DNA of 64,000 nt from Bacteroidaceae bacterium (GCA_017631315.1 JAGBTN010000018.1:95941-159940); one strand, 5' to 3'; numbered from the stretch's first letter, positions 3,822 through 61,058 are shown. Made by a program: numbers and translations. The notes: generated from the letters alone by a model not told the origin.

Positions 3822-4123
3822 CGAAAGTTAATCCATATGTGCAAATTTTCGATACTTTTATAGCTTATAGTTTAGATTACGGGCGGTACGAACATGGCGG
3901 CAACTTGTTTGGTAAATAGTTGTAAATTTTGAAAAGGAGTAAACTCTTTTGACAAAAAGTTAGTATTGTGGCCATTTTGCTTTCTTTCTGCTTTTTGGTA
4001 ACCCTCTGAAAATTGCGTCAAAATCTTCGGGCTGTACTCCGGTACAGGATTTCTGTAATTTTCGCTGTATTCGTAATTGTCTGATAATGTGTATTATAAA
4101 TTACAGTGAGCCCCGTCTTTGTG

Positions 4124-4277
4124 GTGAAAAGGTGTGTTTTGAAGCGCAAAATGGCGTTTTCTGGCGTGCAGAAGTCGATGTTTTGGCGTGAATAAATGCC
4201 AAACTAAACGTGTGTGATTGGTAAAACACTCGTGTGAAGTTTGCAAAACACCCTTGTAAGGTTGAGAGAAAGACTGT
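4124..4277. repeat. seven-unit 22-bp phased degenerate tandem array (family locus a)
   Basis: The hand-parsed units start at 4124, 4146, 4168, 4190, 4212, 4234 and 4256. They are GTGAAAAGGTGTGTTTTGAAGC, GCAAAATGGCGTTTTCTGGCGT, GCAGAAGTCGATGTTTTGGCGT, GAATAAATGCCAAACTAAACGT, GTGTGATTGGTAAAACACTCGT, GTGAAGTTTGCAAAACACCCTT and GTAAGGTTGAGAGAAAGACTGT. Confidence 0.6.
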
Positions 4278-4496
4278 AGGTCGTCGTCCCGCGCACCATT
4301 TTTAGTCCTATTTCATTCCGTTTTGCAACTCAAATTGAAATATCAAATGGAAAGTAAAACCATGTATTCAGCTTGCATTTTGATATTGTGTCTTGATAGA
4401 TGTTGCTATGCTACGACATATTTATATATAGGACCCGAAATTCGAGATCTGTCGAAAATAATGCAGCAAATGTTTGGCTATTCCATAAAAAAGACG

Positions 4497-8167: not shown

Positions 8168-8374
8168 ATGGCTAAGTTCGGAGGAGATGACATCGATGCC
8201 GTTATCTTAGACGGCATTACTTTCCGAGGCAGCTCTAAAAGTGCACCGAAACAGGAAGAGTCTAAGGTCAAGACCAAGGCTAAGAAGAAGCAATACATTA
8301 CGGGTGCGCATGGGAGTGGTGCTGCCAAGAAGAAAGCAGACATACGTCGTCAGCGTGCCAATAGACACAAATGA
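8168..8374 (+). CDS. small lysine/arginine-rich hypothetical protein
   Basis: 68-aa ORF packed tightly between the purH-like gene (12-nt gap) and the next gene (28-nt gap) on the same strand. I recognise no family. Confidence 0.4.
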   Translation: MAKFGGDDIDAVILDGITFRGSSKSAPKQEESKVKTKAKKKQYITGAHGSGAAKKKADIRRQRANRHK

Positions 8375-8402
8375 GTTTAGAATTAAGAGTTAAGAAACAA
8401 GA

Positions 8403-9476
8403 ATGAAAACAAATCTCTTTTCCCTTATCCCTGTTCTCTGTTTTGCGTTGTCCCTGACATCTACTGCTCAGACGCAGGTTGATGCTTTCGTTCCCGGCAG
8501 TACGCTCGAGGGTGTTTGCTACTACTTGCCTCGCACCGCCTTTCGGGTCACTGTTATAGCCGAAAGGACAACTGTCCGCCCCGGTGACTTCTATATGTAT
8601 GCCGACCGCTTCTTGCGGTTGCAGAATGTACCGACCGAGGAGAGTGTTCAGTGGAGTTTGAAGAGCATTACGCTTGAACCATTCGGAAAACCCGACAGGG
8701 ACAAAGCCTATAGCATCAAGCTGAAAAGCAAGACAGTGGCGCCGCTGGTAGGTCTTAGCCGCGATGGCATTTTGTTGAGTATCAATACTGATGCAGACGA
8801 ATCTTTCCTGCCAGAGCTGCCTAAACCGCAACAAGGTAAGAGGCCGGAGAATCCTCGTTCGTACATGACGCAAGAGATACTTGCAGCCGGCAGTAAGGCC
8901 AAGATGGCAGAACTCTGTGCCCAAGAGATTTACGACATACGCGAAAGTAAGAATGCACTTGTCCGCGGAGAAGCAGACAATACGCCGAAGGACGGAGCAC
9001 AGCTTAAACTTATGCTCGATCAGCTTGACCATCAGGCAGCAGTCCTTGAGTCTCTTTTCTGTGGCACAACGCAGACCGATACTGAGGTCTTTTCGTTCTT
9101 TTACGATCCCGTTCAGGAGACAGAACGTGATGTCCTTTTCCGTTTTTCGCAGAAGCTTGGCGTGTTGGATGCCGACAACCTTGCGGGCGAGCCGGTAGCC
9201 GTTTCGGTAAAGGTGCAGGAACCCATTCCTACAACCGTTCCTTCGGAAGACGTGGCCAAGAAACGTGCGAAGATGGAGCGTGGTGTGTACTATAATGTTC
9301 CTGCCAGGACAAGCATAAGCATCAACTATAAAGGCAAGGAATATGTCAGCATGGAGACGCCGATGGGGCAGTTCGGCATCGTCGAAATGCTCTCCAATAC
9401 ACTTTTCGACAAGAAGACCACCACTCAAGTGACATTCTTCCAAACCACTGGCGGTACGAAGGATGTAATGGAGTAA
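8403..9476 (+). CDS. secreted hypothetical protein (possibly DUF4831 family)
   Basis: 357 aa with a signal peptide MKTNLFSLIPVLCFALSLTSTAQ. The family assignment is from memory only. Confidence 0.55.
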   Translation: MKTNLFSLIPVLCFALSLTSTAQTQVDAFVPGSTLEGVCYYLPRTAFRVTVIAERTTVRPGDFYMYADRFLRLQNVPTEESVQWSLKSITLEPFGKPDRDKAYSIKLKSKTVAPLVGLSRDGILLSINTDADESFLPELPKPQQGKRPENPRSYMTQEILAAGSKAKMAELCAQEIYDIRESKNALVRGEADNTPKDGAQLKLMLDQLDHQAAVLESLFCGTTQTDTEVFSFFYDPVQETERDVLFRFSQKLGVLDADNLAGEPVAVSVKVQEPIPTTVPSEDVAKKRAKMERGVYYNVPARTSISINYKGKEYVSMETPMGQFGIVEMLSNTLFDKKTTTQVTFFQTTGGTKDVME

Positions 9477-9525
9477 ACAAGACATAATGCGCCGTTTTTG
9501 CACACAATAAACGGTAACAATCAAT

Positions 9526-9559
9526 AAGGCACACCTTTCCTGCGAGAAAGGTGTGCCTT
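9526..9559 (+). terminator. 14-bp stem hairpin, part of a repeated hairpin+array module
   Basis: AAGGCACACCTTTC (9526-9539) pairs with GAAAGGTGTGCCTT (9546-9559), loop CTGCGA. The architecture matches the hairpin at 15561-15594. Confidence 0.7.
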
Positions 9560-9566
9560 TCTTCGT

Positions 9567-9654
9567 ATAATGCTTAACCATTATGCCCGGAAAGGTTAAC
9601 CATTTCCCAAAGAATGCTTAACCATTATTTTCAGCGATGTTAACGTGTTGGAAA
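9567..9654. repeat. four-unit 22-bp phased array with (G/C)TTAAC(C) cores (family locus b)
   Basis: The cores CTTAAC, GTTAAC, CTTAAC and GTTAAC start at 9573, 9595, 9617 and 9639, exactly 22 bp apart. Confidence 0.7.
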
Positions 9655-13897: not shown

Positions 13898-15469
13898 ATG
13901 GCAGGGACATCAGGAAGGAAACGTTCCGGGGCAATGAAGATAGTGGAAGTGCCTCAGGTTGACCAATATGGACACAAGCAGCCGCAGAGCCTCGACATGG
14001 AGGTGGCTGTGCTGGGTGCTCTTATGGTAGAACAGGATTCATATGGGCAGGTGGCAGAGTTGCTTAAACCGGAGAGTTTCTACGACCATCGCCATCAGTT
14101 GATTTATCAGGCCATTCAGACGCTTAATGCCGAGCAGAAGCCTGTTGACATAATGACTGTCATTGAGCAGTTGGAGCGAACGGATAATCTGGAGGCTTCC
14201 GGCGGTGAGGTCTATCTGATGCAAATCAATGCTAAGGTTGCCAGTTCTGCTCATATCGAGTATCACGCAAAGATTATTGCACAGAAGTCTTTGCAACGCC
14301 AGCTCATTACCTTTGCCAGTCTGGTTCAGACGAAGGCCTTCGACGCTACTGTCGATGTAGCCGACCTTATGCAGGAAGCGGAGAGCATGCTTTTCTCCAT
14401 TTCGCAGAAGAACATGAAGAAGGACTTCACGCAGATTGACCCTGTTATCAGTCAGGTTTACGAACTCATACAGAAGGCGCAGGCAAAGGAGGGTGGTCTG
14501 AGTGGTCTGCCGACAGGCTTCCATGAACTCGACAAGATTACGAATGGTTGGCAGAACAGCGACCTTGTGGTTATTGCTGCCCGTCCGGCAATGGGTAAGA
14601 CGGCTTTTGTGCTTTCCATGATAAAGCGCATGGCTGTAGACCATGGAATTCCTTGCGCCATGTTCAGTCTTGAGATGAGTAACCAGCAGCTTGTGCAGCG
14701 ACTTATGGTCAATGTCAGCGAGTTAAGCGGCGAGAAGTTGCGCAGCGGACAGCTTGCACCATACGAATGGGGTCAACTTGACAAGCGCGTGAGGCAGTTG
14801 TATAATGCTCCCATCTACATTGACGATACGCCCTCTCTAAGTGTGTTCGAGTTGCAGACCAAGGCGCGGCGTCTGGTTCGTGAGTTTGGTGTCAAGATTA
14901 TTATGATTGACTATTTGCAGTTGATGAAGGCCAGTGGCCTCAATATCAATAGCCGACAAGAGGAGGTTAGTGCGGTGAGCCGTGCGTTGAAGGCTCTTGC
15001 CAAGGAATTGAATATTCCGGTTATCGCATTGAGCCAGTTGAATCGTGGCGTTGAAAGCCGTGAGGGCATTGAAGGCAAGCGTCCGCAGTTGAGCGATTTG
15101 CGTGAATCGGGTGCCATAGAGCAGGATGCCGACATTGTATGTTTCATTCATCGCCCGGAGTATTATAAGTTGTATCAAGACGAAAAAGGCTTCGACTGGC
15201 GTGGCAAAGCGATGTTCATCGTGGCCAAGCATCGTAATGGTTCTGTGGATGATATCAAGTTGGCATTCCGTAGTGAGTTTGCCCGATTCTCCGACCTCGA
15301 AACATCAATTCCACTTCCAAACTCGCAGGAAAGCGACATGGGCGGACGCTTTGTGTCGCCGAAGATGACGGCAGAGGAGATGGCAGAGACTGAGAGACTT
15401 GCTCAAGCCATTGGCGCCGATGATTCCTTTGGTGGACTTCAGCAGGCGCAGTTGGGCGACGAATTTTAA
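13898..15469 (+). CDS. dnaB: replicative DNA helicase DnaB
   Basis: 523 aa. The N-domain PQSLDMEVAVLGALM, Walker A AARPAMGKTAF, IMIDYLQLM, SQLNRGVESR and RESGAIEQDAD are the canonical DnaB motifs. Confidence 0.95.
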   Translation: MAGTSGRKRSGAMKIVEVPQVDQYGHKQPQSLDMEVAVLGALMVEQDSYGQVAELLKPESFYDHRHQLIYQAIQTLNAEQKPVDIMTVIEQLERTDNLEASGGEVYLMQINAKVASSAHIEYHAKIIAQKSLQRQLITFASLVQTKAFDATVDVADLMQEAESMLFSISQKNMKKDFTQIDPVISQVYELIQKAQAKEGGLSGLPTGFHELDKITNGWQNSDLVVIAARPAMGKTAFVLSMIKRMAVDHGIPCAMFSLEMSNQQLVQRLMVNVSELSGEKLRSGQLAPYEWGQLDKRVRQLYNAPIYIDDTPSLSVFELQTKARRLVREFGVKIIMIDYLQLMKASGLNINSRQEEVSAVSRALKALAKELNIPVIALSQLNRGVESREGIEGKRPQLSDLRESGAIEQDADIVCFIHRPEYYKLYQDEKGFDWRGKAMFIVAKHRNGSVDDIKLAFRSEFARFSDLETSIPLPNSQESDMGGRFVSPKMTAEEMAETERLAQAIGADDSFGGLQQAQLGDEF

Positions 15470-15558
15470 TCTCCGCTTAACATAGTAAGAGAAAAAGGTT
15501 AACCATTATTGTCGAAAAGGTTAACCATTCTGCCCATAATGCTTAACCATTATAACAA
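15469..15558. repeat. four-unit 22-bp phased array with (G/C)TTAAC(C) cores (family locus c)
   Basis: Cores start at 15475, 15497, 15519 and 15542 (spacing 22, 22, 23). ATAATGGCTTAACCATTAT here differs from ATAATGCTTAACCATTAT at 9567 by one extra G. Confidence 0.7.
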
Positions 15559-15560
15559 AC

Positions 15561-15594
15561 AAGGCCTGCCTTTCTTGCGAGAAAGGCAGGCCTT
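15561..15594. terminator. 14-bp stem hairpin between convergent dnaB and the TSCPD gene (bidirectional terminator candidate)
   Basis: AAGGCCTGCCTTTC (15561-15574) pairs with GAAAGGCAGGCCTT (15581-15594), loop TTGCGA, followed by TATTTT. Confidence 0.7.
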
Positions 15595-19503: not shown

Positions 19504-19543
19504 CCACGTTAAGTTGCCCGACTTAACACGTTAAGTTGGCAGG
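19504..19543. repeat. 22-bp phased repeat, ACGTTAAGT cores (family locus d)
   Basis: ACGT occurs at 19506 and 19528, 22 bp apart. GTTAAGT (19508-19514) and ACTTAAC (19521-19527) form a perfect inverted pair. Confidence 0.55.
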
Positions 19544-30875: not shown

Positions 30876-30897
30876 CCGGAAGGACGCGTCCTTCCGG
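30876..30897 (+). terminator. perfect 22-nt palindrome downstream of the lipoprotein gene
   Basis: CCGGAAGGACGCGTCCTTCCGG gives a 10-bp stem. No strong T-run follows. Confidence 0.45.
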
Positions 30898-30909
30898 CAA
30901 ACTATACGT

Positions 30910-30997
30910 GTGAAGTTTACCAACTTCTCTGCAGAACTTGCCCGACTTCACGTGTGAAGTTTGTCAACTTCACTGCAGAAGTTTTTCGACATCTCTA
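30910..30997. repeat. 22-bp phased array; 44-bp unit duplicated, each copy containing a GTGAAGTT-N4-AACTTC(AC) palindrome (family locus e)
   Basis: The units are GTGAAGTTTACCAACTTCTCTG, CAGAACTTGCCCGACTTCACGT, GTGAAGTTTGTCAACTTCACTG and CAGAAGTTTTTCGACATCTCTA. Confidence 0.65.
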
Positions 30998-31275: not shown

Positions 31276-31349
31276 CATTGACCATTGACCATTGACCATT
31301 GACCATTGACCATTGACCATTGACCATTGACCATTGACCATTGACCATT
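31276..31349. repeat. perfect tandem heptamer array (CATTGAC)x10 plus a partial unit
   Basis: Ten identical units span 31276-31345, followed by CATT. The array lies between the tRNA-Pro 5' end and its only visible promoter box. Confidence 0.95.
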
Positions 31350-31607: not shown

Positions 31608-32675
31608 ATGAAAAAGTATAACTTTAATGCAGGCCCCTCCATCCTCCCTCGCGAGGTGATAGAGGCAACGTCTGCTGCTTGCTTGGACTTCGAGGGCAGC
31701 GGACTTTCTCTCATGGAAACAAGTCATCGTGCAAAGAACTTCCAGCCGATTGTCGACGAAGCAGTTGCTCTGTTCAAGGAACTGCTCAGCATACCCGAAG
31801 GCTACAGCGTTGTCTTCCTCGGCGGTGGTGCAAGTCTGGAGTTTTGCATGGTGCCCTACAACTTCCTCGAGAAGAAGGCAGCCTACCTCAATACCGGCGT
31901 CTGGGCAAGCAAGGCACAGAAGGAAGCAAAACTCTTCGGCGAAGTGGTGGAAGTGGCTTCCAGCGCCGACAAGAACTTTACATACATCCCCAAGAACTTC
32001 ACCATCCCAACGGATGCCGATTACTTACACATCACAAGCAACAACACCATCTACGGTACAGAACTCCTCAAAGACATAGACAGCCCCATTCCGGTGATTG
32101 CCGACATGAGTAGTGATATCTTCTCCCGTCCCATAGACGTTAGCAAATACGGCATGATTTATGGCGGTGCCCAGAAGAACCTGAGCATGGCAGGCGTCAC
32201 CTTCTGCATCATCAAGGAAGACTTGTTGGGCAAGGTGAGCCGTCCTATCCCCACAATGCTCGACTATCGTACACACGTCAAGAAGGGCAGCATGTTCAAC
32301 ACACCTCCCACAGTGCCCATCTATTGCGCATTGCAGAACCTGAAGTGGATTAAAAAGCAGGGCGGCGTCGAGGCAATGGAGAAGTTGGCCATCCAGCGTT
32401 CAGCAATTCTATACGAGGAGATTGACCGCAACAAACTCTTTGTCGGCACAGCCGAAGCAGACAGCCGCTCACGCATGAACATCACCTTCGTACTGAAGCC
32501 CGAGTATCAGGAACTGCAAGACGAGTTTATGGCATTTGCCACCAGTAAGGGCATGGTAGGCGTGAAGGGACATCGCGACGTAGGCGGCTTCCGTGCAAGT
32601 TGCTACAACGCTATGACCATAGAAGGTTGCGAGGCTCTCGTGGCTTGCATGAAGGAGTTTGAAAAGAGTCATTGA
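31608..32675 (+). CDS. serC: phosphoserine aminotransferase
   Basis: 355 aa. [24 protein letters not shown] and [14 protein letters not shown] (PLP lysine region) are canonical SerC. Confidence 0.95.
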
Positions 32676-32711
32676 CCATTCATCATTTACCATTGAGCAT
32701 TGACCATTAAT
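32670..32711. repeat. degenerate heptamer array (CATTGAC-like, 6 units); left inverted repeat of cassette 1
   Basis: The units are CATTGAC, CATTCAT, CATTTAC, CATTGAG, CATTGAC and CATTAAT. The serC stop codon TGA lies inside the first unit. Confidence 0.75.
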
Positions 32712-32725
32712 TCCAATGAGCAGAA

Positions 32726-33085
32726 ATGCGAAACGACAATCAGATACTTTTTGACAGTAAGGCCTTCGCTCTTCGGATAATAAGGCTATACAATTATCTC
32801 AAGCAAGAGAAACAGGTGTATGTCTTGTCAAAGCAGTTGTTGAGAAGCGGCACAAGCATAGGGGCTAATGTCCGAGAGAGTGTCAATGCTCAAAGTAGAA
32901 TGGATTTTATAAACAAATTAAACATTGCCCTAAAGGAGGCAAACGAAAGTGAATATTGGTTGGAACTGCTTCACGAATCAAATTATTTGGACGACCAACA
33001 GTTTGAGTCCATCTATAATGATTGTGGCAAGATAGCGGCGACTTTGACAAAAATCATAAGGACAACCAAAGCGACTGCAAACTAA
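32726..33085 (+). CDS. four-helix-bundle protein, 23S rRNA intervening-sequence protein / Avd-like family (PF05635)
   Basis: 119 aa. QLLRSGTSIGANVRES, DFINKLNIALKEANESEYWLELL are family hallmarks. Confidence 0.85.
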   Translation: MRNDNQILFDSKAFALRIIRLYNYLKQEKQVYVLSKQLLRSGTSIGANVRESVNAQSRMDFINKLNIALKEANESEYWLELLHESNYLDDQQFESIYNDCGKIAATLTKIIRTTKATAN

Positions 33086-33086
33086 T

Positions 33087-33118
33087 AATGGTCAACGGTC
33101 AATGTTCAATGTTCAATA
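33087..33118. repeat. heptamer array in reverse-complement orientation (GTCAATG-like, 4-5 units); right inverted repeat of cassette 1
   Basis: AATGGTCAACGGTCAATGTTCAATGTTCAATA. Segment 33087-33111 is reverse complementary to 32684-32708 at 21 of 25 positions. Confidence 0.75.
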
Positions 33119-33124
33119 GACAAA

Positions 33125-34042
33125 ATGAAAATACTTGTAGCAACAGAAAAGCCATTCAGCAAGGTTGCTGTAGATGGCATTAAGGCAGTGACAGATGCTG
33201 CCGGATATGAACTTATTCTCCTCGAGAAATATACAGAAAAGAGCCAGTTGCTCGATGCCGTAAAGGATGTCGATGCCATGATTATCCGCTCGGATAAAGT
33301 GGATGCAGAAGTCCTGGATGCAGCCAAGCAACTGAAGATTGTTGTACGTGCCGGTGCTGGTTACGACAACATCGACCTTGCTGCAGCCACAGCACACAAC
33401 GTGGTTGCCATGAACACACCCGGACAGAATGCCAACAGCGTGGCAGAACTGGTGTTCGGTTTGCTCGTCTTCGGCGTTCGCAACATGTTCAACGGTACAA
33501 GCGGCACAGAACTGATGGGCAAGCGGCTTGGCATCTTGGCCTTTGGCAACGTCGGTCGTAATGTAGCCCGCATTGCAAAAGGCTTTGGCATGGAGATTGC
33601 TGCTTACGATGCTTTCTGTCCTGCAGAAGCCATCGAGGCTGCCGGCGTGACGGCTGTAAAGAATCAGGACGAACTCTTCGAGACTTGCGACATCGTGTCG
33701 CTCCACATTCCTGCAACCCCCGAAACAAAGCAGAGCATCAACTACGACCTCGTAGGCAAGATGAAGGAGGGTGGCATCCTTGTGAACACTGCACGTAAGG
33801 AAGTCATCGACGAAGAAGGTCTCATCAAACTGATGGAGGAGCGTAAAGACCTGAAGTACCTTACAGACATCAAGCCCGATGCAGATGCAGAGTTCGCAGA
33901 GAAGTTTGCCGGTCGTTACTTCGCCACACCGAAGAAGATGGGCGCACAGACAGCAGAAGCAAACGTCAATGCCGGCATTGCAGCAGCAAACCAGATTGTG
34001 GGCTTCCTTCGCGATGGAATAACTAAATTCAAAGTCAACTAA
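33125..34042 (+). CDS. serA: D-3-phosphoglycerate dehydrogenase (short form, 2-hydroxyacid dehydrogenase family)
   Basis: 305 aa with the NAD-binding motif GILAFGNVGRNVA. It sits in the serC operon context typical of Bacteroidales. Confidence 0.85.
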   Translation: MKILVATEKPFSKVAVDGIKAVTDAAGYELILLEKYTEKSQLLDAVKDVDAMIIRSDKVDAEVLDAAKQLKIVVRAGAGYDNIDLAAATAHNVVAMNTPGQNANSVAELVFGLLVFGVRNMFNGTSGTELMGKRLGILAFGNVGRNVARIAKGFGMEIAAYDAFCPAEAIEAAGVTAVKNQDELFETCDIVSLHIPATPETKQSINYDLVGKMKEGGILVNTARKEVIDEEGLIKLMEERKDLKYLTDIKPDADAEFAEKFAGRYFATPKKMGAQTAEANVNAGIAAANQIVGFLRDGITKFKVN

Positions 34043-34087
34043 TAAATTTAATAATTTAAGGATTTTATATTTAACGATTAGATACTA

Positions 34088-34486
34088 ATGACAGAGGCCG
34101 AGTTGAAGGATAGGCTGATGAACTTTGCAATCAGAATCATTAAAATGGTTGATTCTATGCCTCATTCTATATCTTCTGCGGCTATTGCCAAACAAGTTGT
34201 ACGTTCAGGCACTTCGCCGATTGCCAACTATCGGGCTGCATGTCTTGGAAAGTCTAAAAGAGATTTCTTGAATAAGTTAAAGATGGTAGAGGAGGAACTG
34301 GATGAAACAGGGATGTGGCTCGACATCATCATGGAAACAGAAATGCTCCCACGTAAACGCGTCAGCGCATTATATGCCGAAAGTCAAGAACTCCTGAAAA
34401 TAATTATCAGTTCAATACTCACCGTACAGACTTCATTAAAATCGGAAGGCAAAGAAACTCCATCTACCCAATCTTCAAACAGATAA
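34088..34486 (+). CDS. four-helix-bundle protein, 23S rRNA intervening-sequence protein / Avd-like family (PF05635)
   Basis: 132 aa. QVVRSGTSPIANYRAA, DFLNKLKMVEEELDETGMWLDII are family hallmarks. It is only distantly related to the copy at 32726. Confidence 0.85.
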   Translation: MTEAELKDRLMNFAIRIIKMVDSMPHSISSAAIAKQVVRSGTSPIANYRAACLGKSKRDFLNKLKMVEEELDETGMWLDIIMETEMLPRKRVSALYAESQELLKIIISSILTVQTSLKSEGKETPSTQSSNR

Positions 34487-34561
34487 TCTTCAATGAGGTT
34501 TATCAATGCCCAAACAAATCAATCCTAAAATATAAAATCTTTAAATCCTAAAATAATAAAG

Positions 34562-38824: not shown

Positions 38825-38911
38825 AACATCTACTGCCTAATTGGCCAACATCTACTGTTAAGTCGCCCCGAATGGTTAACCTATTTTGCCAATTAGGTTA
38901 ACCTGTTTGAC
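38825..38911. repeat. four-unit 21-23-bp phased array (family locus f)
   Basis: The units are AACATCTACTGCCTAATTGGCC, AACATCTACTGTTAAGTCGCCCC, GAATGGTTAACCTATTTTGCC and AATTAGGTTAACCTGTTTGAC. They share words with the loci at 56370 and 42803. Confidence 0.65.
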
Positions 38912-38972: not shown

Positions 38973-39515
38973 TTAGTAGTTTTCGGCTTTAATCTGGAAG
39001 TAGCTCTTGGGGTGAACGCAAACGGGACACAGTTCGGGTGCCTTCTTGCCGATGACGATGTGGCCGCAGTTAGAGCATTGCCAGATAACGTCTCCGTCGC
39101 GAGAGAAAACGATGTCGCCTTCGATGTTGTTCAACAACTTGCGGTAGCGCTCTTCGTGATGCTTTTCGATGGCGCCTACCAACTCAAACTTTGCAGCAAT
39201 TTCGTCGAAGCCTTCTTCGCGAGCCTCTTTTGCCATACGGGCATACATGTCTGTCCATTCGTAGTTCTCGCCATTGGCAGCATCGGCAAGGTTTGCTTGT
39301 GTGTCGCTCACCTGACCGCCGTTCAAGTACTTGTACCACAACTTGGCGTGTTCTTTTTCGTTGGCAGCAGTTTCCTCGAAGAGGGCTGCAATCTGCACAT
39401 AACCATCCTTTTTTGCCTTTGATGCAAAGTATGTGTACTTATTACGTGCCATGCTCTCACCAGCAAAAGCCTCCTTGAGGTTCTGCTCGGTCTTGGTTCC
39501 TTTCAAATCTTTCAT
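38973..39515 (-). CDS. rbr: rubrerythrin
   Basis: 180 aa. The diiron ferritin-like domain ([21 protein letters not shown]) is followed by a C-terminal rubredoxin domain (CSNCGH...CPVC). Confidence 0.9.
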
Positions 39516-39542
39516 AGTCTTTTCTTTTAAAAATTAGCACTA

Positions 39543-39550
39543 CAAAGTTA
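39543..39550 (-). promoter_or_regulatory. -7 promoter box (TAACTTTG on minus strand) for rubrerythrin
   Basis: Plus strand CAAAGTTA, 28 nt upstream of the start at 39515. Confidence 0.6.
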
Positions 39551-39593
39551 CGAAAAAAATGTCATACAATACTACGAAGCACAGATATTTTTG

Positions 39594-39601
39594 TAATTTT
39601 G
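39594..39601 (+). promoter_or_regulatory. -7 promoter box TAATTTTG
   Basis: Matches TAnnTTTG, 8 nt before the ATG at 39610. That implies a leaderless or very short-leader mRNA. Confidence 0.45.
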
Positions 39602-39609
39602 CAGCAGAA

Positions 39610-40236
39610 ATGTCTTGCCTAAACAAAGAAAATATAGCCAGAAGCACCGGTGAGGTAGAGTATCACCCGTTGAAACCCTTCTTGCCGGCAGAGGCGAAGG
39701 TGCTGTTTCTCGGCAGCTTCCCACCTCAGCGAAAGCGTTGGTGCATAGACTTCTTCTATCCTAATTTCATCAACGACCATTGGCGCATCGAAGGACAGGT
39801 GTTCTTCGGCGACCGCAATCACTTTGTCCTTGAGGGGGGAAAGCGCTTCAAGCAGGATGAGATAGTGAGGCATTGTGAGGAGAAAGGCCTTGCCTTCTTC
39901 GATACGGCACAAGCAGTTCGTCGTCTTAAGGACAATGCTTCCGACAAATTTCTCGAAGTTGTTGAACCAACAGACATTGCCGCTTTGCTTGCACAACTGC
40001 CACACTTAAGGGCCATCGTTACTACAGGCGAGAAAGCAACCGAAACAATTTGTGCGACATTGCACATCGACGATTTGCCGAAAGTCAATACATCAGTCCC
40101 TATTTCTGCCCTCCATAATGCTGATGGCGAGCAGATATGCCTGTGGCGACTGCCTTCGTCATCTCGCGCATACCCTTTAGCCTTTGACAAAAAAGTAGAG
40201 GCATACCGCCGAATGTTTAGCCATATTGGGTTGTAA
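39610..40236 (+). CDS. uracil-DNA glycosylase superfamily protein (family 6 / hypoxanthine-DNA glycosylase-like)
   Basis: VLFLGSFPPQRKRWCIDFFYPNFINDHWRI resembles the UDG-superfamily motif A region. I chose the start at 39610 (MSCLNKE) because of the promoter box at 39594. The ORF track offers an alternative start at 39559. Confidence 0.6.
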   Translation: MSCLNKENIARSTGEVEYHPLKPFLPAEAKVLFLGSFPPQRKRWCIDFFYPNFINDHWRIEGQVFFGDRNHFVLEGGKRFKQDEIVRHCEEKGLAFFDTAQAVRRLKDNASDKFLEVVEPTDIAALLAQLPHLRAIVTTGEKATETICATLHIDDLPKVNTSVPISALHNADGEQICLWRLPSSSRAYPLAFDKKVEAYRRMFSHIGL

Positions 40237-40249
40237 TGTTGCCCAGCTC

Positions 40250-41506
40250 CTACAGACCTTTTATCCACTCTGCAATATCGCTCAGAACTTCCGCAGAAAT
40301 AGTTTCTTCTATCTGTCGGTACTCATTCGTGTTGCCAGTAGAACAGTGTTGGAAAAGATGGTTAAGCCCAGTGTATTCCTTCACGCGATTCATCTTTGTC
40401 TTAGGAAGAAGTTGCTCGATGGCCGTGAGGTTCTGCAGGGAGATTACCTGGCAATCACGATTGCCGTTAATGGCAAAGACCGGACAACGTGTAGATTTGA
40501 TGTCTGCAGACGGGTCATAATCAATAAACCATCGGAACCAGGGAGCCTTCAAAAGCTGTTCGTTCTTGCGAAGTTGCGCTATTGACGTTTTGGTTGGTAT
40601 TCCCATCAACTCTGCAACACGATTTTGCTGCATCACTAAGAGCGTATCACCCTTAACGCCCGGGCCTGCCATCGATACAATGAAGTCTGTCATACCTTTT
40701 GCTCCAAGGATGAAAGCAATGGCACCTCCTTCGCTATGTCCAATTAAACCAACTTTCGAGAAAGCCTTCATTCCTCGCAAGAACTTAAGACCTGCCGCTG
40801 CATCGCGAGAGAAATCTTCGGTTGTAGCACTGGCAACATCCCCGCCGACGGAAGCCCCTGTGGCACGATCGTCGTAGCGAAGTGATGCAATGCCTTGCCG
40901 AGCCATGTAGTCGGCAATGACGAGAAAGGGTTTATGCTCGAAGATTTCCTCGTCACGATTCTGTTGTCCGCTGCCTGTGACAAGGAGGACAACGGTGGGT
41001 TTCTTATGGCTTTTTGGGTCGTAACCTATGGGCCAGGTGAGTGTTCCGGCAAGTGTTGCGCCATCTTTATCGTTTCGGAATGTTACTTCTTCTGTTGTGT
41101 AGGGATATGGTTGCTGTGGTGTCTGGGGACGTTTCACTTGGGAGATACCTCTTGTTAATTCAAGTGGTGCGGAGAAACCCATTTGTGTGAATGTCCCGTC
41201 GAGCTTGCCTTCTTTGAGTCGGGCTGAATATGTAATGCCGAGTGCTTCTACTTTTACGGCCAACGAGTCGTCGCTGAGATATTCTTTCAGAACGGGTATT
41301 CCTTTCGCGCTTTGGTCCGGACTGTCCATCCGGACTATAGTATATCCGTCGGCTTGCTCTAGATGAAAGACTATTGTAAGTGCGGAGGAGCCGACTTTGA
41401 GCTTGCCTGACCACGAACCGATCAGGGCGGTGGTTGCCTGGACTTGTGCTTGTGCTGCGATTGCAGTGAAGGTCAGCAGAAGGGACAGTAGTTTTCGGAT
41501 GTTCAT
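40250..41506 (-). CDS. secreted alpha/beta hydrolase (serine hydrolase)
   Basis: 418 aa with a signal peptide MNIRKLLSLLLTFTAIAAQA and a nucleophile elbow GLIGHSEGG. Confidence 0.7.
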   Translation of the reverse strand: MNIRKLLSLLLTFTAIAAQAQVQATTALIGSWSGKLKVGSSALTIVFHLEQADGYTIVRMDSPDQSAKGIPVLKEYLSDDSLAVKVEALGITYSARLKEGKLDGTFTQMGFSAPLELTRGISQVKRPQTPQQPYPYTTEEVTFRNDKDGATLAGTLTWPIGYDPKSHKKPTVVLLVTGSGQQNRDEEIFEHKPFLVIADYMARQGIASLRYDDRATGASVGGDVASATTEDFSRDAAAGLKFLRGMKAFSKVGLIGHSEGGAIAFILGAKGMTDFIVSMAGPGVKGDTLLVMQQNRVAELMGIPTKTSIAQLRKNEQLLKAPWFRWFIDYDPSADIKSTRCPVFAINGNRDCQVISLQNLTAIEQLLPKTKMNRVKEYTGLNHLFQHCSTGNTNEYRQIEETISAEVLSDIAEWIKGL

Positions 41507-41548
41507 GACTTATGTGTTTGTTTATATGATGCTCTGTGTGACGGTGTT

Positions 41549-42055
41549 TTATAATGAGTGTAGTCTTTCGTTCAGCAGTTCCAATAGGTATTCCGGCTTT
41601 GTGTCTAATCCTGTGACGGTGATGGTGTCTTGTGCTTTTATTATGCAGGTGTCGGCGGAATGCATAATGCGCTTGATGATGTTGCTATTCGTTATTTCTT
41701 GTCTTCTTACATGACTTTTGTAGCGCACGGTTATGAATTTTGAGTCGCAGACGTTCTTTAGCGAGAAGGATTCTACGTCGGAAAAGTTTATTACCTTTGT
41801 TTCCGGGCTGTTAGTGATGAGGTACTTGTCGGTAATCGTCAGGAATGGCTGGTGTGTTAACCTTTCTTTCAGCATTGTGTATGCCATTACTATGGCGCAG
41901 AAGCCAAAGAAAAGAATGCTTGCCCAACCGGCTATCCATCCGAGCATGCTTTTGTGGATGTGGATGATGAGGATGCCTCCGCAGACAAGGAGGATGCTTG
42001 CTGTGATGAGGCAAAGCATCCTCCATGCGGAATGGTAGACTCGAACCTCTTTCAT
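41549..42055 (-). CDS. hypothetical membrane protein (two N-terminal TM helices plus a PH-like soluble domain)
   Basis: 168 aa with hydrophobic segments LCLITASILLVCGGILIIHI and WIAGWASILFFGFCAIVMAY. I am not confident of any family. Confidence 0.5.
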   Translation of the reverse strand: MKEVRVYHSAWRMLCLITASILLVCGGILIIHIHKSMLGWIAGWASILFFGFCAIVMAYTMLKERLTHQPFLTITDKYLITNSPETKVINFSDVESFSLKNVCDSKFITVRYKSHVRRQEITNSNIIKRIMHSADTCIIKAQDTITVTGLDTKPEYLLELLNERLHSL

Positions 42056-42064
42056 GCCTGAGTG

Positions 42065-42658
42065 TTATGTGGTTTGCTGGTATCTTTTTTCGATGGTGTT
42101 CCAGTCGATGATTTGCCACAATGCTGCAAGATGATCGGGGCGTCGGTTTTGGAAGTCGAGGTAGTAGGCGTGTTCCCAGACGTCGAAGGTCAGTAGGGGA
42201 GTGAGACCTTGCTGTATGGGGTTGGCTGCGTTTGCCTCTTGTGTGATGACGAGTTTGCCGTCTTTGTCGGCAGAAAGCCAAACCCATCCGCTGCCGAAGA
42301 GTGTTGCCCCTTTCTTCTGGAACTCCTCCTTGAAGGCTTCGAAAGAGCCGAAGTCGCGGTCGATGGCTTCGCCCAAGGCATTTGCAGGCTTTGTCTGCGT
42401 GGGTTTGCCAGTGAACTGTGAGAAGTAAAGTTCGTGGTTCAGGATTTGACCGGCATTGTTTAGCAAGCCACCACTTGCTTTGCAAACGATTTCTTCGAGT
42501 GTGGCATCCTCAAAATCGCTGCCGGGAAGAAGTCCGTTAAGGTTGTTGACATAAGCTGCCAGGTGTTTGCCGTGGTGGAAACTGATAGTGTTGCGGCTGA
42601 TTACTGGCTCCAGAGCATTTGCCTCGTAGGGCAGTGCCATCAATTCATAGGTCTTCAT
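42065..42658 (-). CDS. sod: Fe/Mn superoxide dismutase
   Basis: I take the start at the internal Met MKTYELMALPYEANALEPVIS. FHHGKHLAAYVNNLN and DVWEHAYYLDFQNRRPDH are canonical. Confidence 0.9.
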   Translation of the reverse strand: MKTYELMALPYEANALEPVISRNTISFHHGKHLAAYVNNLNGLLPGSDFEDATLEEIVCKASGGLLNNAGQILNHELYFSQFTGKPTQTKPANALGEAIDRDFGSFEAFKEEFQKKGATLFGSGWVWLSADKDGKLVITQEANAANPIQQGLTPLLTFDVWEHAYYLDFQNRRPDHLAALWQIIDWNTIEKRYQQTT

Positions 42659-42691
42659 AATTTCTCCTTTCTTTATGTGGTTTTGGCTCTG

Positions 42692-42699
42692 CAAATATA
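42692..42699 (-). promoter_or_regulatory. -7 promoter box (TATATTTG on minus strand) for sod
   Basis: Plus strand CAAATATA, 34 nt upstream of the start at 42658. Confidence 0.55.
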
Positions 42700-42802
42700 G
42701 CGAAATAAAAACACGTGAATAGGAGAAGGACAACTATTTTTCTCGAAGATATGAAAAATAATGTAGTGCGAGAGAATTTCCATGCAGGGATGCTCCAAAA
42801 CA

Positions 42803-42880
42803 TGGCACGTTAAGTTTGCCAAATAGGTTAACCTAATTGCCTCGAAAGGTTAACCATTCTTTGCGGAAAGGTTAACCTGT
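42803..42880. repeat. 22-bp phased array with GTTAAG/GGTTAACC cores (family locus g)
   Basis: Cores start at 42809, 42827, 42849 and 42871 (spacing 18, 22, 22). Confidence 0.65.
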
Positions 42881-42905
42881 TTTTTATGATAACAATGGGG
42901 AGAGA

Positions 42906-44639
42906 TTATTTCTCCAGAATCTTGCGGGCCTTGGCGAGAGCGACATCGATGTGGTCGCAAATGTGGTCGCTCTCCATGAGGTCGTAGAATCGAGCTTTCA
43001 AGAGCTGGCTGTGTACCTTCTTGTTAACACCGGAAAGAATGACGTGGATGCCTTCAGCGTGATTCATCTCGATGAGTGTCTGCAGATTATGTATGCCTGT
43101 AGAATCGATGAAGGGCACTTTTCTCATCCGGATGATGCGCACTTTCGGACGTTCACGACCGCTGTTTGCCATAAGGTCGTCAAACTTGTTGGCAACACCA
43201 AAGAAGAATGGGCCGTTAATCTCATAAACTGTGCAGCCCTGGGGTATCGTCAAATGCTCCTCGTTCACCGAAATGTCCGAAACATCTCCCAAGTCGATTT
43301 CGTCCTTGATAACAGAGATTTCAGTTGTCTCCATGATGCGCTTCATAAAGAGGGCGCAGGCAAGAATAAGACCAACCTCGATGGCGATGGTGAGGTCGAA
43401 GACAACAGTCAGGAAGAACGTCACGCCAAGAACAATCACGTCGCTCTTCGGATTCTTGAACAAGCCCTTGACTGTTCGCCAACCGCTCATGTTGTATGCA
43501 ACAATGACCAATACCGCCGCAAGCGACGCCATGGGGATATATTCGGCATAAGGCATCAGCAAAAGCAGAATGGCCAGCAGGACAATGGCATGGATGATGC
43601 CTGCAACAGGCGTGCGGCCACCATTGTTGATGTTCGTCATCGTGCGGGCAATGGCTCCCGTGGCAGGGATGCCGCCAAAGAGTGGCGTAACCATGTTTGC
43701 CACACCCTGCGCAATGAGTTCCATGTTCGAGTCATGCTTGTCGCTGATAACGCCATCGGCTACTGCCGCCGACAACAGGCTCTCTATGGCTCCGAGAATG
43801 GCTATGGTGAAGGCAACCGGCATGAGTTTCTGGATAAGTTCAAAGGTAATGCTCGGAACAACCATCTCCGGCAGTTGTGCCTGAATTTGAAAACGGTCGC
43901 CAATCGTGTCGATTCCCTCAATGCCATACTGCTTCATAATGATGACAGCAATGGTTCCGAGCAGGATGCCATAAAGCGAACCGGGGATTTTGTTGAGGCC
44001 CGAAACCTTTTTCAATGCTTTAGGCAAGAAAATGATAACCAGCAGAGAACCAATGGCAACGATGAAATTCCAGAGGTTGAACGTCCCGATGTTCTGGGCA
44101 TAGCAAATCCATTTCCCGATAAAATCACCGGGCGTCTTCAGAGGAACACGTATTACTTCACCGGTGTTGCTTATCGCAGTTTGCGTCAAACCGAGAATAT
44201 CGCTGATTTGCGTCGTGAAGATGGTCAGCGCAATGCCTGCCGTGAAACCTATAATAATAGGATAAGGAATGAACTTAATAATAACACCCAGGCGGAAAGC
44301 GCCAAGAGCAATGAGGATGACACCAGCCAGGATGGTGGCAATGAGCAGACCCTGCAAACCATATTCTGGGTTGTTGACAATGCCATAGATGATGACAATG
44401 AAGGCACCGGTAGGACCACCAATCTGTACTTTGCTGCCTCCAAGCAACGAGATGAGGAAGCCTGCCACAATAGCAGTAATGATACCTTTCTCGGGAGTTA
44501 CGCCGCTGGCAATGCCGAAGGCAATGGCTAATGGTAAGGCAACAATGCCCACAATAATGCCTGCCATCAGGTCTTTCATGAACAATCCCTCATTGTAATT
44601 CTTCAAACAACTGATGATTCTTGGAGTCATTCCTTTCAT
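42906..44639 (-). CDS. SulP family inorganic anion transporter with C-terminal STAS domain
   Basis: I take the start at MKGMTPRIIS (44639). The upstream extension in the ORF track is just a translation of the heptamer repeat. The protein is polytopic, with a STAS-like C-terminus (VRIIRMRKVPFIDSTGIHNLQTL). Confidence 0.85.
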   Translation of the reverse strand: MKGMTPRIISCLKNYNEGLFMKDLMAGIIVGIVALPLAIAFGIASGVTPEKGIITAIVAGFLISLLGGSKVQIGGPTGAFIVIIYGIVNNPEYGLQGLLIATILAGVILIALGAFRLGVIIKFIPYPIIIGFTAGIALTIFTTQISDILGLTQTAISNTGEVIRVPLKTPGDFIGKWICYAQNIGTFNLWNFIVAIGSLLVIIFLPKALKKVSGLNKIPGSLYGILLGTIAVIIMKQYGIEGIDTIGDRFQIQAQLPEMVVPSITFELIQKLMPVAFTIAILGAIESLLSAAVADGVISDKHDSNMELIAQGVANMVTPLFGGIPATGAIARTMTNINNGGRTPVAGIIHAIVLLAILLLLMPYAEYIPMASLAAVLVIVAYNMSGWRTVKGLFKNPKSDVIVLGVTFFLTVVFDLTIAIEVGLILACALFMKRIMETTEISVIKDEIDLGDVSDISVNEEHLTIPQGCTVYEINGPFFFGVANKFDDLMANSGRERPKVRIIRMRKVPFIDSTGIHNLQTLIEMNHAEGIHVILSGVNKKVHSQLLKARFYDLMESDHICDHIDVALAKARKILEK

Positions 44640-44658
44640 GTCTTTTACTTTAATGCTG

Positions 44659-44666
44659 CAAAAGTA
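44659..44666 (-). promoter_or_regulatory. -7 promoter box (TACTTTTG on minus strand) for sulP
   Basis: Plus strand CAAAAGTA, 20 nt upstream of the start at 44639. Confidence 0.55.
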
Positions 44667-44672
44667 CAACAA

Positions 44673-44700
44673 ATTGAACATTGAACATTGAACATTGAAC
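44673..44700. repeat. perfect tandem heptamer array (ATTGAAC)x4
   Basis: Units lie at 44673, 44680, 44687 and 44694, between the divergent sulP and POT promoter boxes. Confidence 0.9.
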
Positions 44701-44709
44701 AATTTTTTA

Positions 44710-44717
44710 TAACTTTG
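44710..44717 (+). promoter_or_regulatory. -7 promoter box TAACTTTG for the POT-NhaC-GH32 operon
   Basis: Matches TAnnTTTG, 33 nt upstream of the ATG at 44750. Confidence 0.6.
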
Positions 44718-44749
44718 TCGGCAAATTATTAACTTAAATCAACTTAAAT

Positions 44750-46255: not shown

Positions 46256-46256
46256 G

Positions 46257-56369: not shown

Positions 56370-56461
56370 AAAAAACATCTACTGTTAAATTGGTCAACAA
56401 GGTACGTTGAGTCGGCCGGAAAGGCACGCCTAATTGGCTAACTTGGCAGTAGATGTTTTTT
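56370..56461. repeat. 92-bp palindromic MITE-like element built of four 22-bp units (family locus h)
   Basis: The 15-bp terminal inverted repeats are AAAAAACATCTACTG (56370-56384) and CAGTAGATGTTTTTT (56447-56461). The interior shares CCTAATTGGC and TTAA words with loci f and g. Confidence 0.7.
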
Positions 56462-60903: not shown

Positions 60904-60994
60904 TTTGAAGAGAAAAAATCTGACAAGATATTGGGAAGTCTTGCCGTACGGAACACCGATGTCGGCAACTTGCTGCAGGTAGTTCCCCAACATC

Positions 60995-61058
60995 CCACGT
61001 TAAGTCGGCCAACTAAACGTGTATAGTTGCTCGACTAAACACGTGAAGTTTGCCTGTT
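60995..61058. repeat. 22-bp phased repeat with ACGT(T/G)(A/T)AAGT cores (family locus i)
   Basis: ACGT occurs at 60997, 61017 and 61041, so the first and third copies are 44 bp (2 x 22) apart. It ends with ACACGTGAAGTTTGCC, like loci a and e. Confidence 0.55.

Follow-up and report, generated by a model that had tools for sequence, protein, structure and literature searches.

The stretch of DNA analysed here, called the window throughout, spans 64,000 nucleotides of a Bacteroidaceae bacterium genome (GCA_017631315.1, JAGBTN010000018.1:95941-159940) and carries nine short arrays of degenerate units of about 22 bp. The flanking genes with Pfam support are all ordinary chromosomal ones, namely mscS, rpsF, a DUF4831 gene, dnaB, pheT, an inositol monophosphatase gene, sprA, and genes for peptidase M3, rubrerythrin, sodB, sulP, GH43, phoA, a GDSL lipase and padR. 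Array 1 (4124-4277; about seven degenerate 22-nt units) occupies the spacer from which mscS (-) and rpsF (+) diverge. More decayed than any other member, with a lag-22 identity of 0.56, a match at 4120-4288 in a blind periodicity scan, CGTG at 4165/4187/4209/4231 and an RNAfold z of -2.5 on both strands, it is the sole one in a divergent promoter spacer rather than beside a gene 3' end. Array 2 (9567-9654; four units of the (G/C)TTAACCATT type) begins 7 nt past the terminator hairpin of the DUF4831 gene (9526-9559), with the next gene 205 nt downstream, while array 3 (15471-15558; four units of AAAGGTTAACCATT plus a linker) fills the gap from the dnaB stop codon (15467-15469) to a bidirectional terminator hairpin at 15561-15594. 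These two terminator hairpins are near twins, and the apex of the one at 9526-9559 (CCTTTC-CTGCGA-GAAAGG) resembles an array unit; as a dispersed element in their own right the twins were rejected, since just two copies exist.

Array 4 (19504-19543) holds about two units of the ACGTTAAGT type with the hairpin GTTAAGT-TGCCCG-ACTTAAC, has a lag-22 identity of 0.78, and lies between the inositol-monophosphatase gene (-) and pheT (-). Array 5 (30903-30997) consists of four units with a 44-nt super-period, their alternating GAAGTT/AACTTC arms enclosing centres that are ACGTGT, TGCA or linker (z=-2.9 on either strand); it begins 5 nt past a GC-rich hairpin (30876-30897) that itself follows a Big_2 gene, and the word which had been described as duplicated 44 bp apart is indeed found at 30906 and 30950 (ACGTGTGAAGTT). 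Array 6 (38825-38911; four units with the mixed words AACATCTACTG, CCTAATTGGCC and GGTTAACC) separates two convergent genes, for peptidase M3 (+) and rubrerythrin (-), and folds as a single long hairpin with z=-3.9. Array 7 (42799-42886), which runs from the stop of sulP (-) towards the start of sodB (-), has a ACGTTAAGTTTGCC unit and, after it, three of the GGTTAACC type, and array 8 (56370-56461), downstream of phoA (-), has four units forming a 92-nt hairpin (RNAfold -40.7 kcal/mol, z=-6.4), with 15-nt perfect terminal inverted repeats (AAAAAACATCTACTG / CAGTAGATGTTTTTT) and A/T runs. Both end in T-runs and resemble terminators themselves, array 8 a bidirectional one. The last, array 9 (60992-61058; three units of the ACGT type), lies 90 nt past the stop codon of the GDSL-lipase gene (+) and 347 nt before padR.

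The proposal of the initial annotation that these are nine intergenic arrays of ~22-bp units is borne out by the recurring columns that appear when each locus is set in rows of 22 nt. Self-identity at lag 22 is 0.44-0.78 per locus and 0.55 when all nine are pooled, and 0.50 at lag 44, with other lags at ~0.20-0.30. A blind sliding scan of the window, using 44-nt windows and every lag from 12 to 40, gave seven strong regions at lag 22 versus 0-3 at each other lag; the regions coincide with the loci already annotated, the weaker loci at 19504, 38825 and 56370 fall slightly under the threshold, and no additional locus of comparable strength was found in the whole 64 kb. The per-locus lags and the blind scan thus agree in placing the 22-bp periodicity above other lags. 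The positions first given for the recurring cores are correct within one base, with three in the array taken to start at 15469 off by one, and the strict 22-bp spacing claimed for them holds overall, with two spacings of 18 and 23 nt. Neighbouring units are ~55% identical and some arrays consist of 2-3 units; because the units are so degenerate, TRF alone reports 2 of the 9 arrays in the window. A scan with a single-unit HMM was abandoned as too weak, true units not being separable from background.

The arrays are also marked by their vocabulary. The octamer GGTTAACC has eight copies in the window against 0.68 expected, all within arrays, so that the early impression of eight octamers confined to arrays and absent from CDS was accurate. 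Similarly, GGTTAACCATT, TTAACCATT, ACGTTAAGT and CCTAATTGGC are array-only in the window and CATCTACTG is in arrays in four of five copies, with enrichment p values from 1e-3 to 1e-8 against a non-coding fraction of 10.4%. Most of the words that had been proposed as shared and intergenic are therefore found in non-coding DNA only, and in arrays only; CAGAAGT, listed among them, has 19 copies of which 2 are in arrays, and is best left out as a generic word. By sequence, at least two classes of loci can be told apart: a GGTTAACC type, to which arrays 2, 3 and 7 and a portion of array 6 belong, and an ACGT type, with arrays 4, 5 and 9 and portions of arrays 1 and 8. Profile comparison finds no similarity above chance between these classes, and the sole bridges between them are the hybrid arrays 6, 7 and 8 and the common period. 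At least three or four unrelated cores coexist in one genome (TTAA, ACGT, TGCA and CATCTACTG words). Similarity between the loci of the window ends at the array edges, with no common leader or tail.

None of the arrays overlaps a Pfam-supported gene, in agreement with the claim that all loci are outside coding sequence; an ORF at 8298-9581(-) that overlaps array 2 is spurious, the real gene being DUF4831 at 8403-9476(+). Together they make up ~780 of the ~6,600 non-coding bases of the window (~12%). The same placement is seen in a pooled sample of 777 kb chosen independently of the repeats (described below). Crude ORF calls assign 88% of that DNA to coding sequence, yet none of its 41 arrays falls there. 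Of the flanking 3' ends, 21 of 39 are no more than 35 nt from the array, compared with 1 of 37 flanking 5' ends (p=4e-7), and the median distances are 30 nt and 246 nt, respectively. These distances in relatives, together with the arrays of the window, support the description of the loci as lying mostly at gene 3' ends or near terminators. More than one type of intergenic region is occupied.

A polarity relative to replication was considered on the first impression that all nine arrays read alike on the G-rich, gene-rich + strand. This was dropped, as the units are near-symmetric and the G/C skew of the arrays is inconsistent; among 64 GGTTAACC arrays on other contigs, spacer orientation is concordant with local GC skew in 30 and discordant in 34. 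No polarity with respect to transcription was seen either, the orientation of the linker (TTGnC vs GnCAA) showing no bias relative to the upstream gene. Indeed, because the units are nearly symmetric, the orientation of an array is barely defined.

The feature that most constrains the mechanism, and one that the initial annotation overlooked, is dyad symmetry. Most units are small palindromes that can be written X'-P-X-L, where the inverted arms X and X' have 5-7 nt each, the centre P is short and usually self-complementary (TTAA, ACGT/CACGTG, TGCA), and the linker L has 4-8 nt and is close to TTGnCAA (TTTGCC, TTGGCCAA, TTTGCAAA). Examples are AATGGTTAACCATT, GAAGTT-nnnn-AACTTC, GTTAAGT-TGCCCG-ACTTAAC and ACTTCAC-GT-GTGAAGT. 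For the consensus units of 39 non-redundant arrays, drawn from the window together with its relatives, the best axis gives 6.56 complementary pairs out of 11, compared with 5.38 +/- 0.97 after shuffling; the palindromes measure 14-18 bp, and some arrays show little symmetry. Around 438 GGTTAACC cores taken from many genomes the arms are complementary in 258/256/277/203 cases at successive positions, against 152/134/157/135 expected by independence, and the arm sequences themselves differ by genome (AATGG/CCATT, GAGG/CCTC, TTTGGG/CCCAAA). In a periodic sequence, symmetry about one axis implies a second axis half a period away, and hence the whole array approximates its own reverse complement. 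This near self-reverse-complementarity is why either strand folds well and why forward and reverse are indistinguishable by profile comparison, and the 44-nt super-period of array 5 is likewise explained by array symmetry.

Folding is stronger than in shuffled sequences on both strands (z from -2 to -6) for all arrays of the window except the two-unit array at 19504, which cannot be told from shuffles (z=-0.9 and -0.2). An abutting gene indicates the transcribed strand of 17 arrays; in these, the sense strand folds with the same energy as the antisense strand (p=0.89), and mismatches of the G.T kind do not exceed those of the A.C kind (7 vs 8), so the type tolerated in RNA is not in excess; the test yields no strand-specific signature of RNA-level selection and equally no evidence against transcription. 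Mismatches in the arms are mostly between identical bases (A.A 16, T.T 14, G.G 12, C.C 10), and two mismatched forms, AAAGGTTAACCATT and AATGGTTAACCTTT, are commoner in the genus of the window than the perfectly paired ones. As mismatched forms outnumber paired ones, maximal hairpin stability is not the preserved trait, and it is chiefly the mismatch spectrum and this excess of mismatched forms that leave room for a reading at the level of DNA.

The exact protein sequence of the window's DnaB is matched on metagenome contigs only. Its homologues are labelled 'Bacteroidaceae bacterium', and the nearest named genera are Paraprevotella and Phocaeicola, at 67-72% identity. With each species represented by a single genome, a pattern scan for triplets of GGTTAACC cores at a spacing of 21-23 nt found at least 103 loci; among the matches listed, most are in gut or rumen Bacteroidaceae MAGs, with tens of loci per genome. 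One MAG, RGIG4268, is ~91% identical to positions 39476-47429 of the window and carries array 7 nearly unchanged. As such a scan is biased by its own pattern, dnaB neighbourhoods from metagenomes, selected by protein similarity, were used as a repeat-independent sample. There were 27 strong lag-22 arrays in 313 kb where DnaB is 87-97% identical, 3 in 163 kb at 76-83%, 11 in 204 kb at 64-71%, and none in 249 kb at 58% or less. Relatives with DnaB at least 64% identical therefore hold 41 period-22 arrays in 0.68 Mb, and more distant ones hold none; in the same sample, lag 22 apart, no lag indivisible by 3 gives more than 1 array. A TRF census likewise shows discrete periods, with 7, 8, 12 and 22/44 predominating in close relatives, of which 22/44 is gone in the distant set. 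Given these counts and period classes, the 22-bp phase is a trait of the clade and not of a single genome.

Across these relatives the array words vary widely (AGTACGTGTACTT, ATCGCCGCACGCGGCGAT, ATACATACATGTATGTAT, AACACAACACGTTGTGTT, AAAGAGGTACACC), and what recurs despite the changes of word is the period, the dyad symmetry and the TTGnCAA-like linker. The period itself differs by lineage, being 22 here, 21 in matches from Odoribacteraceae and Tannerellaceae, and 23 in P. gingivalis. The density of one array per about 7-12 kb extrapolates to a copy number in the hundreds per genome.

Among strains of the window's species the arrays are identical or nearly so. Array 3 is 99% conserved, array 6 varies at 2 of 87 positions versus 31 of 373 in its flank, and no variation in unit number was seen among the strains, so the arrays are not hypermutable. 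A related species, L110, has a DnaB 97% identical and intergenic DNA ~80% identical to those of the window, and the three arrays that could be tested there (2, 3 and 4) occupy the same sites. Array 2 aligns with an exact 22-nt gap, L110 having one unit fewer; array 3 is conserved at 79 of 89 positions (flank, 75 of 102), and array 4 at 38 of 40, with its flank at 74%. Pooled, the arrays are conserved no better than neutrally with respect to their flanks, two being more conserved and one less. A further difference of a single unit separates L118 from L119 at the dnaB 3' end (5 vs 4 units), and we conclude that the arrays change by whole 22-nt units. At this one site, related species carry at least five different array types, or none: relatives with DnaB at 87-92% identity have wholly different 22-nt words (L113, L115/L128, L118/L119, L120), while others in the same range have 7-8-nt tandem-word hairpins or the terminator alone.

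The initial annotation did not recognise the arrays as a named repeat family, and our comparisons agree, there being no Rfam match, no BrickBuilt unit or terminal repeat, and nothing in the literature searched. Rfam returned only a tRNA, both at the gathering threshold and at E<=1 for the window, and at E<=0.1 for six related loci. No description of such Bacteroidaceae arrays was found in the literature, subscription-only papers aside; the genome paper of P. gingivalis W83 reportedly mentions 22-nt repeats. The REP/BIME sequences of Enterobacteria and Pseudomonas are alike in many respects, being short imperfect palindromes that are strictly extragenic, present in hundreds of copies (a figure that is extrapolated here), clustered in arrays mainly after gene 3' ends and often right past stop codons, able to form hairpins in a transcript, and altered in array size by tandem amplification. 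However, the palindromes here are 14-18 bp rather than 20-40, the units run head-to-tail at a fixed 22 bp whereas BIMEs have alternating orientation and variable linkers, and several unrelated sequence classes are found per genome. The REP tag GTAG/CGTC gives no support, as GTAG is not enriched (5 of 373 copies are in arrays) and CGTC never occurs in them. RAYTs, the Y1 transposases associated with REPs and flanked by them, are single-copy genes, and none is present among the Pfam-annotated genes of the 64-kb window. The arrays are thus REP/BIME-like in behaviour and not members of that group.

The closest described relative in build and taxonomy is BrickBuilt, a MITE of Porphyromonas gingivalis and P. 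gulae laid out as leader, minisatellite and tail (Klein et al., 2015; PMC4596501). It too belongs to Bacteroidales, is always intergenic and often near terminators, has no Rfam match, and consists of tandem repeats with dyad symmetry whose number varies between copies and strains. Its 23-nt unit is built alike, from a linker and the palindrome TCTCAT|ATGAGA, and its layout of leader, arrays and tail is matched by an element in the related genome H07617, but is absent from the copies in the window. The arrays are nonetheless not members of BrickBuilt. The 23-nt unit (AGACCATAGTATCCTCTCATATG) has no match with up to 3 mismatches, the period here being 22, and the IS5-type terminal inverted repeats (GAGACCTTTGCA) have none with up to 1 mismatch; arrays here have 2-7 units as opposed to up to 23, occur at ~1 per 7 kb as opposed to 19 per 2.3 Mb, and use many different words instead of one.

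Plasmid iterons such as the 22-bp repeats of R6K and pPS10 share direct repetition, a phasing of ~22 bp and runs of 3-7 units. Iterons are of one sequence, non-palindromic, and placed in a replication origin beside a rep gene, whereas here the sequence varies, the units are dyad-symmetric, and the nine loci are spread over a region of housekeeping genes, with no rep gene. Three other candidates were set aside: the sigma-54 -24/-12 boxes (TGGCACG...TTGC), whose spacing is exceeded here by 2 nt; parS (TGTTNCACGTGAAACA), relative to which CTTCAC-AC-GTGAAG has a 2-nt insertion and different arms; and the 22-bp transposase-binding sites of Tn7 and Mu, which are not palindromic.

Three explanations had been offered at the outset: a structured 3'-UTR module, a decayed MITE family, and an iteron or nucleoid-protein binding array. 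Two of them fit what was found, since the arrays abut stop codons and terminators, as a 3'-UTR module would, and a related genome has the same arrays inside a multicopy leader-array-tail element, as expected of a MITE-like family. The binding array is the least supported of the three, because there are several unrelated cores, the loci occur here and there among housekeeping genes, none of them near a replication gene, and their placement tracks gene 3' ends and not an origin; the accompanying argument that a 22-bp period sets every core on one face of the helix is one of geometry only. The reading that we put at roughly an even chance is that the arrays are interspersed palindromic minisatellites forming a family specific to this lineage, which would correspond in Bacteroidaceae to REP/BIME and to the BrickBuilt repeat core. 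The unit would be a 22-bp imperfect palindrome, with arms of 5-7 nt, a short self-complementary centre and a TTGnCAA-like linker, and its constant period would most simply be inherited from one founder unit. We infer that whole units are gained and lost, most simply via replication slippage or unequal exchange, that array sequences are replaced fast between species, and that survival is probably limited to harmless non-coding sites, either between stop codon and terminator or just past the terminator, and at a distance of 90 nt or more from start codons. Drift of the arms need not destroy their complementarity, which quasi-palindrome correction by template switching, or else weak selection for pairing, could maintain. 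Owing to the dyad symmetry, either strand, or a transcript if one is made, would be able to fold into several small hairpins in succession or into a single long one. In E. coli, REPs stabilise the upstream mRNA against 3' exonucleases and can attenuate transcription, and those within ~15 nt of a stop codon can modulate translation termination. By analogy with these, a putative effect of the arrays would be to give mRNAs stable 3' ends that resist 3' exonucleases, or to provide backup termination, and the best reading is that they are tolerated or may be put to use as 3'-UTR hairpins. Several observations sit uneasily with a minisatellite of hairpin-forming units, in that no sign of RNA-level selection is seen, mismatched forms are common and pooled conservation is neutral. 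Descent from a founder unit likewise has to contend with the strict 22-bp period of arrays unrelated in sequence, which could mean a physical ruler.

Among the rival explanations, chance low-complexity sequence, or ordinary terminator hairpins taken for a family, is very improbable. The degeneracy of the units, the arrays of 2-3 units and the poor yield of TRF are what could be said for it, but lag 22 is singled out in the window and again in 0.68 Mb of independent related DNA, word enrichment reaches p=1e-8, and same-site arrays are kept in a species with ~80% identical intergenic DNA; the lag scans and the word enrichment have already refuted it, and the clade-wide repeat family is real and statistically solid. 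A more serious proposal, doubtful in our view yet well within reach, is that the arrays are decayed non-autonomous MITE-like elements, as BrickBuilt was interpreted to be, moved in trans by a transposase encoded elsewhere. The arrays would then be the internal minisatellite, and the copies in the window would be old fragments that lack leader, tail and terminal repeats. H07617 speaks for such mobility, with at least eight copies of a ~450-nt composite on different contigs, each running from a leader with GGTATATACC units through two or three 22-nt arrays that differ from one another and vary in unit number (a CACGTACGTG array of ~1.5 to 10 units, then a GGTTAACC array of 3-5 units) to a tail of ~150 nt. 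The 15-nt perfect terminal inverted repeats, clear only in array 8, the two near-identical arrays 1.2 kb apart in L083, and the high density and non-coding placement of the arrays all point the same way. In the window, however, similarity between loci is confined to the arrays themselves, the BrickBuilt IS5-type terminal repeat is absent, and no transposase, integrase or Y1/HUH gene is found among the Pfam-annotated genes. A RAYT or other transposase was also sought between the duplicated arrays of L083 and none was recognised; the intervening gene is a hypothetical of 214 aa, known as an ORF only, and is unlikely to be a transposase. Neither presence/absence polymorphism nor an empty site was seen among the strains or in L110, target-site duplications could not be defined and none was seen, and the family is essentially absent from mobile replicons, with 1 match in 2.9 million viral contigs and none found in plasmid and phage collections.

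It is also conceivable, if unlikely, that the arrays are phased platforms for protein binding on double-stranded DNA, each palindrome being read by a dimeric or shape-reading protein (a nucleoid-associated protein, an insulator or a roadblock), with two-turn spacing placing the sites on one face, like iterons and centromere-like arrays. This would account for a period that is strictly 22 bp even in sequence-unrelated arrays and is specific to the lineage (21, 22 or 23), for self-complementary centres, which an RNA hairpin does not require, for symmetry on both strands without polarity, for mismatches that keep the base-pair class (A.A/T.T, G.G/C.C), with half-sites such as AAAGG/CCATT tolerated, and for two arrays being more conserved than their flanks. 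Yet three or four unrelated cores per genome would call for several proteins or a purely shape-based reader, the arrays lie at stop codons and terminators and not at promoters or origins, sequence turns over rapidly at a fixed site, conservation shows no overall excess, and no candidate gene for a binding protein is linked to the arrays. A related and quite improbable notion is that the 22-bp period is set by a physical ruler, that is, by a lineage-specific protein or enzyme that reads or builds dyad units two helical turns apart at gene ends. What keeps this idea alive is the combination of self-complementary centres, lack of strand polarity, base-pair-class mismatches and a period that varies by lineage. 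If it were true, the arrays would be a Bacteroidaceae-specific system acting at the level of DNA, for example in transcription insulation or nucleoid structuring at 3' boundaries, and not REP-like passengers. As it stands the finding is moderately interesting, and it would be of high interest were the 22-bp phase set by a dedicated protein or enzyme of this kind.

Bacteroidaceae are dominant in the gut of humans and ruminants, and their non-coding DNA is poorly charted; to our knowledge, they are without an RNA biology centred on Hfq and ProQ such as Proteobacteria have. With their strict 22-bp phase and whole-unit indels, the arrays are simple to detect and usable as a strain or species marker, and they could also break short-read assemblies or seed spurious small ORFs in annotation. 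As an interspersed palindromic minisatellite family, they would provide a second independent system, besides REP/BIME, in which to ask why bacteria keep palindromic arrays after genes. Even if the family is a neutral passenger, it is still the record of an active mutational process particular to the clade, the slippage of palindromic units, and a family placed at gene 3' ends could influence mRNA stability, termination and read-through for hundreds of genes.

Within the otherwise complementary arms of the arrays that abut the 3' ends of genes, both in the window itself and in the retrieved loci L110-L170, 52 of 83 mismatches pair a base with itself (A.A, T.T, G.G, C.C). Neutral decay of a hairpin is expected to leave transition-type mismatches (G.T, A.C), but it is the same-base type that predominates instead. 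The window and MAG RGIG4268 (locus L091) are ~91% identical across 8 kb, but the 395 nt at 42606-43000, within which array 7 and the terminal part of sulP lie, are 99% identical between the two. From this local rise in identity, the 395-nt stretch may be a recent recombination tract.

Two near-twin terminator hairpins of 34 nt each (window 9526-9559 and 15561-15594; AAGGC...CCTTTC-yTGCGA-GAAAGG...GCCTT) each immediately adjoin one GGTTAACC-type array, and their apex is similar to an array unit (CCATTCTTTGCGGAAAGG). No third copy of the 34-nt terminator was found in the window or in the retrieved loci. Array 2 and its terminator are also overlapped by a spurious ORF of 427 aa (8298-9581, minus strand), which has no Pfam match and lies on the strand opposite the true DUF4831 gene (8403-9476, plus strand); it could mislead annotation.

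Besides the 22-nt arrays, the window holds a further class of non-coding tandem repeats with periods of 7-8 nt (31276-31349, 32669-32708, 33087-33117, 34040-34074, 34521-34560 and 44673-44701), whose words are CATTGAC (10.6 copies), AATGGTC, TAATAATT, AATCCTAA and ATTGAAC. Several of these are placed either side of two small genes for a 23S rRNA-intervening-sequence protein (PF05635 in Pfam, a four-helix bundle; 32726-33085 and 34088-34486). The pair sits between aminotransferase class-V, 2-hydroxyacid dehydrogenase and DUF1015 genes and, with short tandem repeats at the borders of each, the two genes have the appearance of small inserted cassettes. At the dnaB 3' end of related species, comparable 7-8-nt words are followed by their own reverse complement (AGTTCAT...ATGAACT; AACGGATT...AATCCGTT), a layout that would be predicted to form long hairpins.

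In the related Bacteroidaceae genome MAG H07617-L1_cleanbin_000056, several distinct 22-nt palindromic arrays are joined in series within a multicopy non-coding element of ~450 nt (one copy at L055 513-965, counted along the reverse complement of that locus as stored; other copies in L011, L013, L049, L057, L064, L071 and L097). The element combines arrays of GGTATATACC, CACGTACGTG and GAGGTTAACCTC with a conserved tail of ~150 nt; its copies vary in unit number, and additional AGTAGTACTACT arrays lie beyond it.

Many Bacteroidaceae-type GAGGTTAACCTC arrays occur in assemblies labelled Firmicutes (L009, L010, L024, L025 and others), under the names Clostridium sp. CAG:217, Anaerobutyricum sp., Vescimonas coprocola and Lachnospiraceae, and a DnaB homologue labelled 'Clostridium sp.' is 71% identical to the window DnaB; these labels are probably wrong. 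In an Odoribacteraceae MAG (L012, L018, L044, L081, L090, L104) and in Tannerellaceae (L007), GGTTAACC-centred palindromes form long, almost perfect arrays of up to ~13 units with a period of 21 nt (e.g. TTTGGGTTAACCCAAATTGAG), which suggests that sister families of a different period exist in other families of the Bacteroidales.
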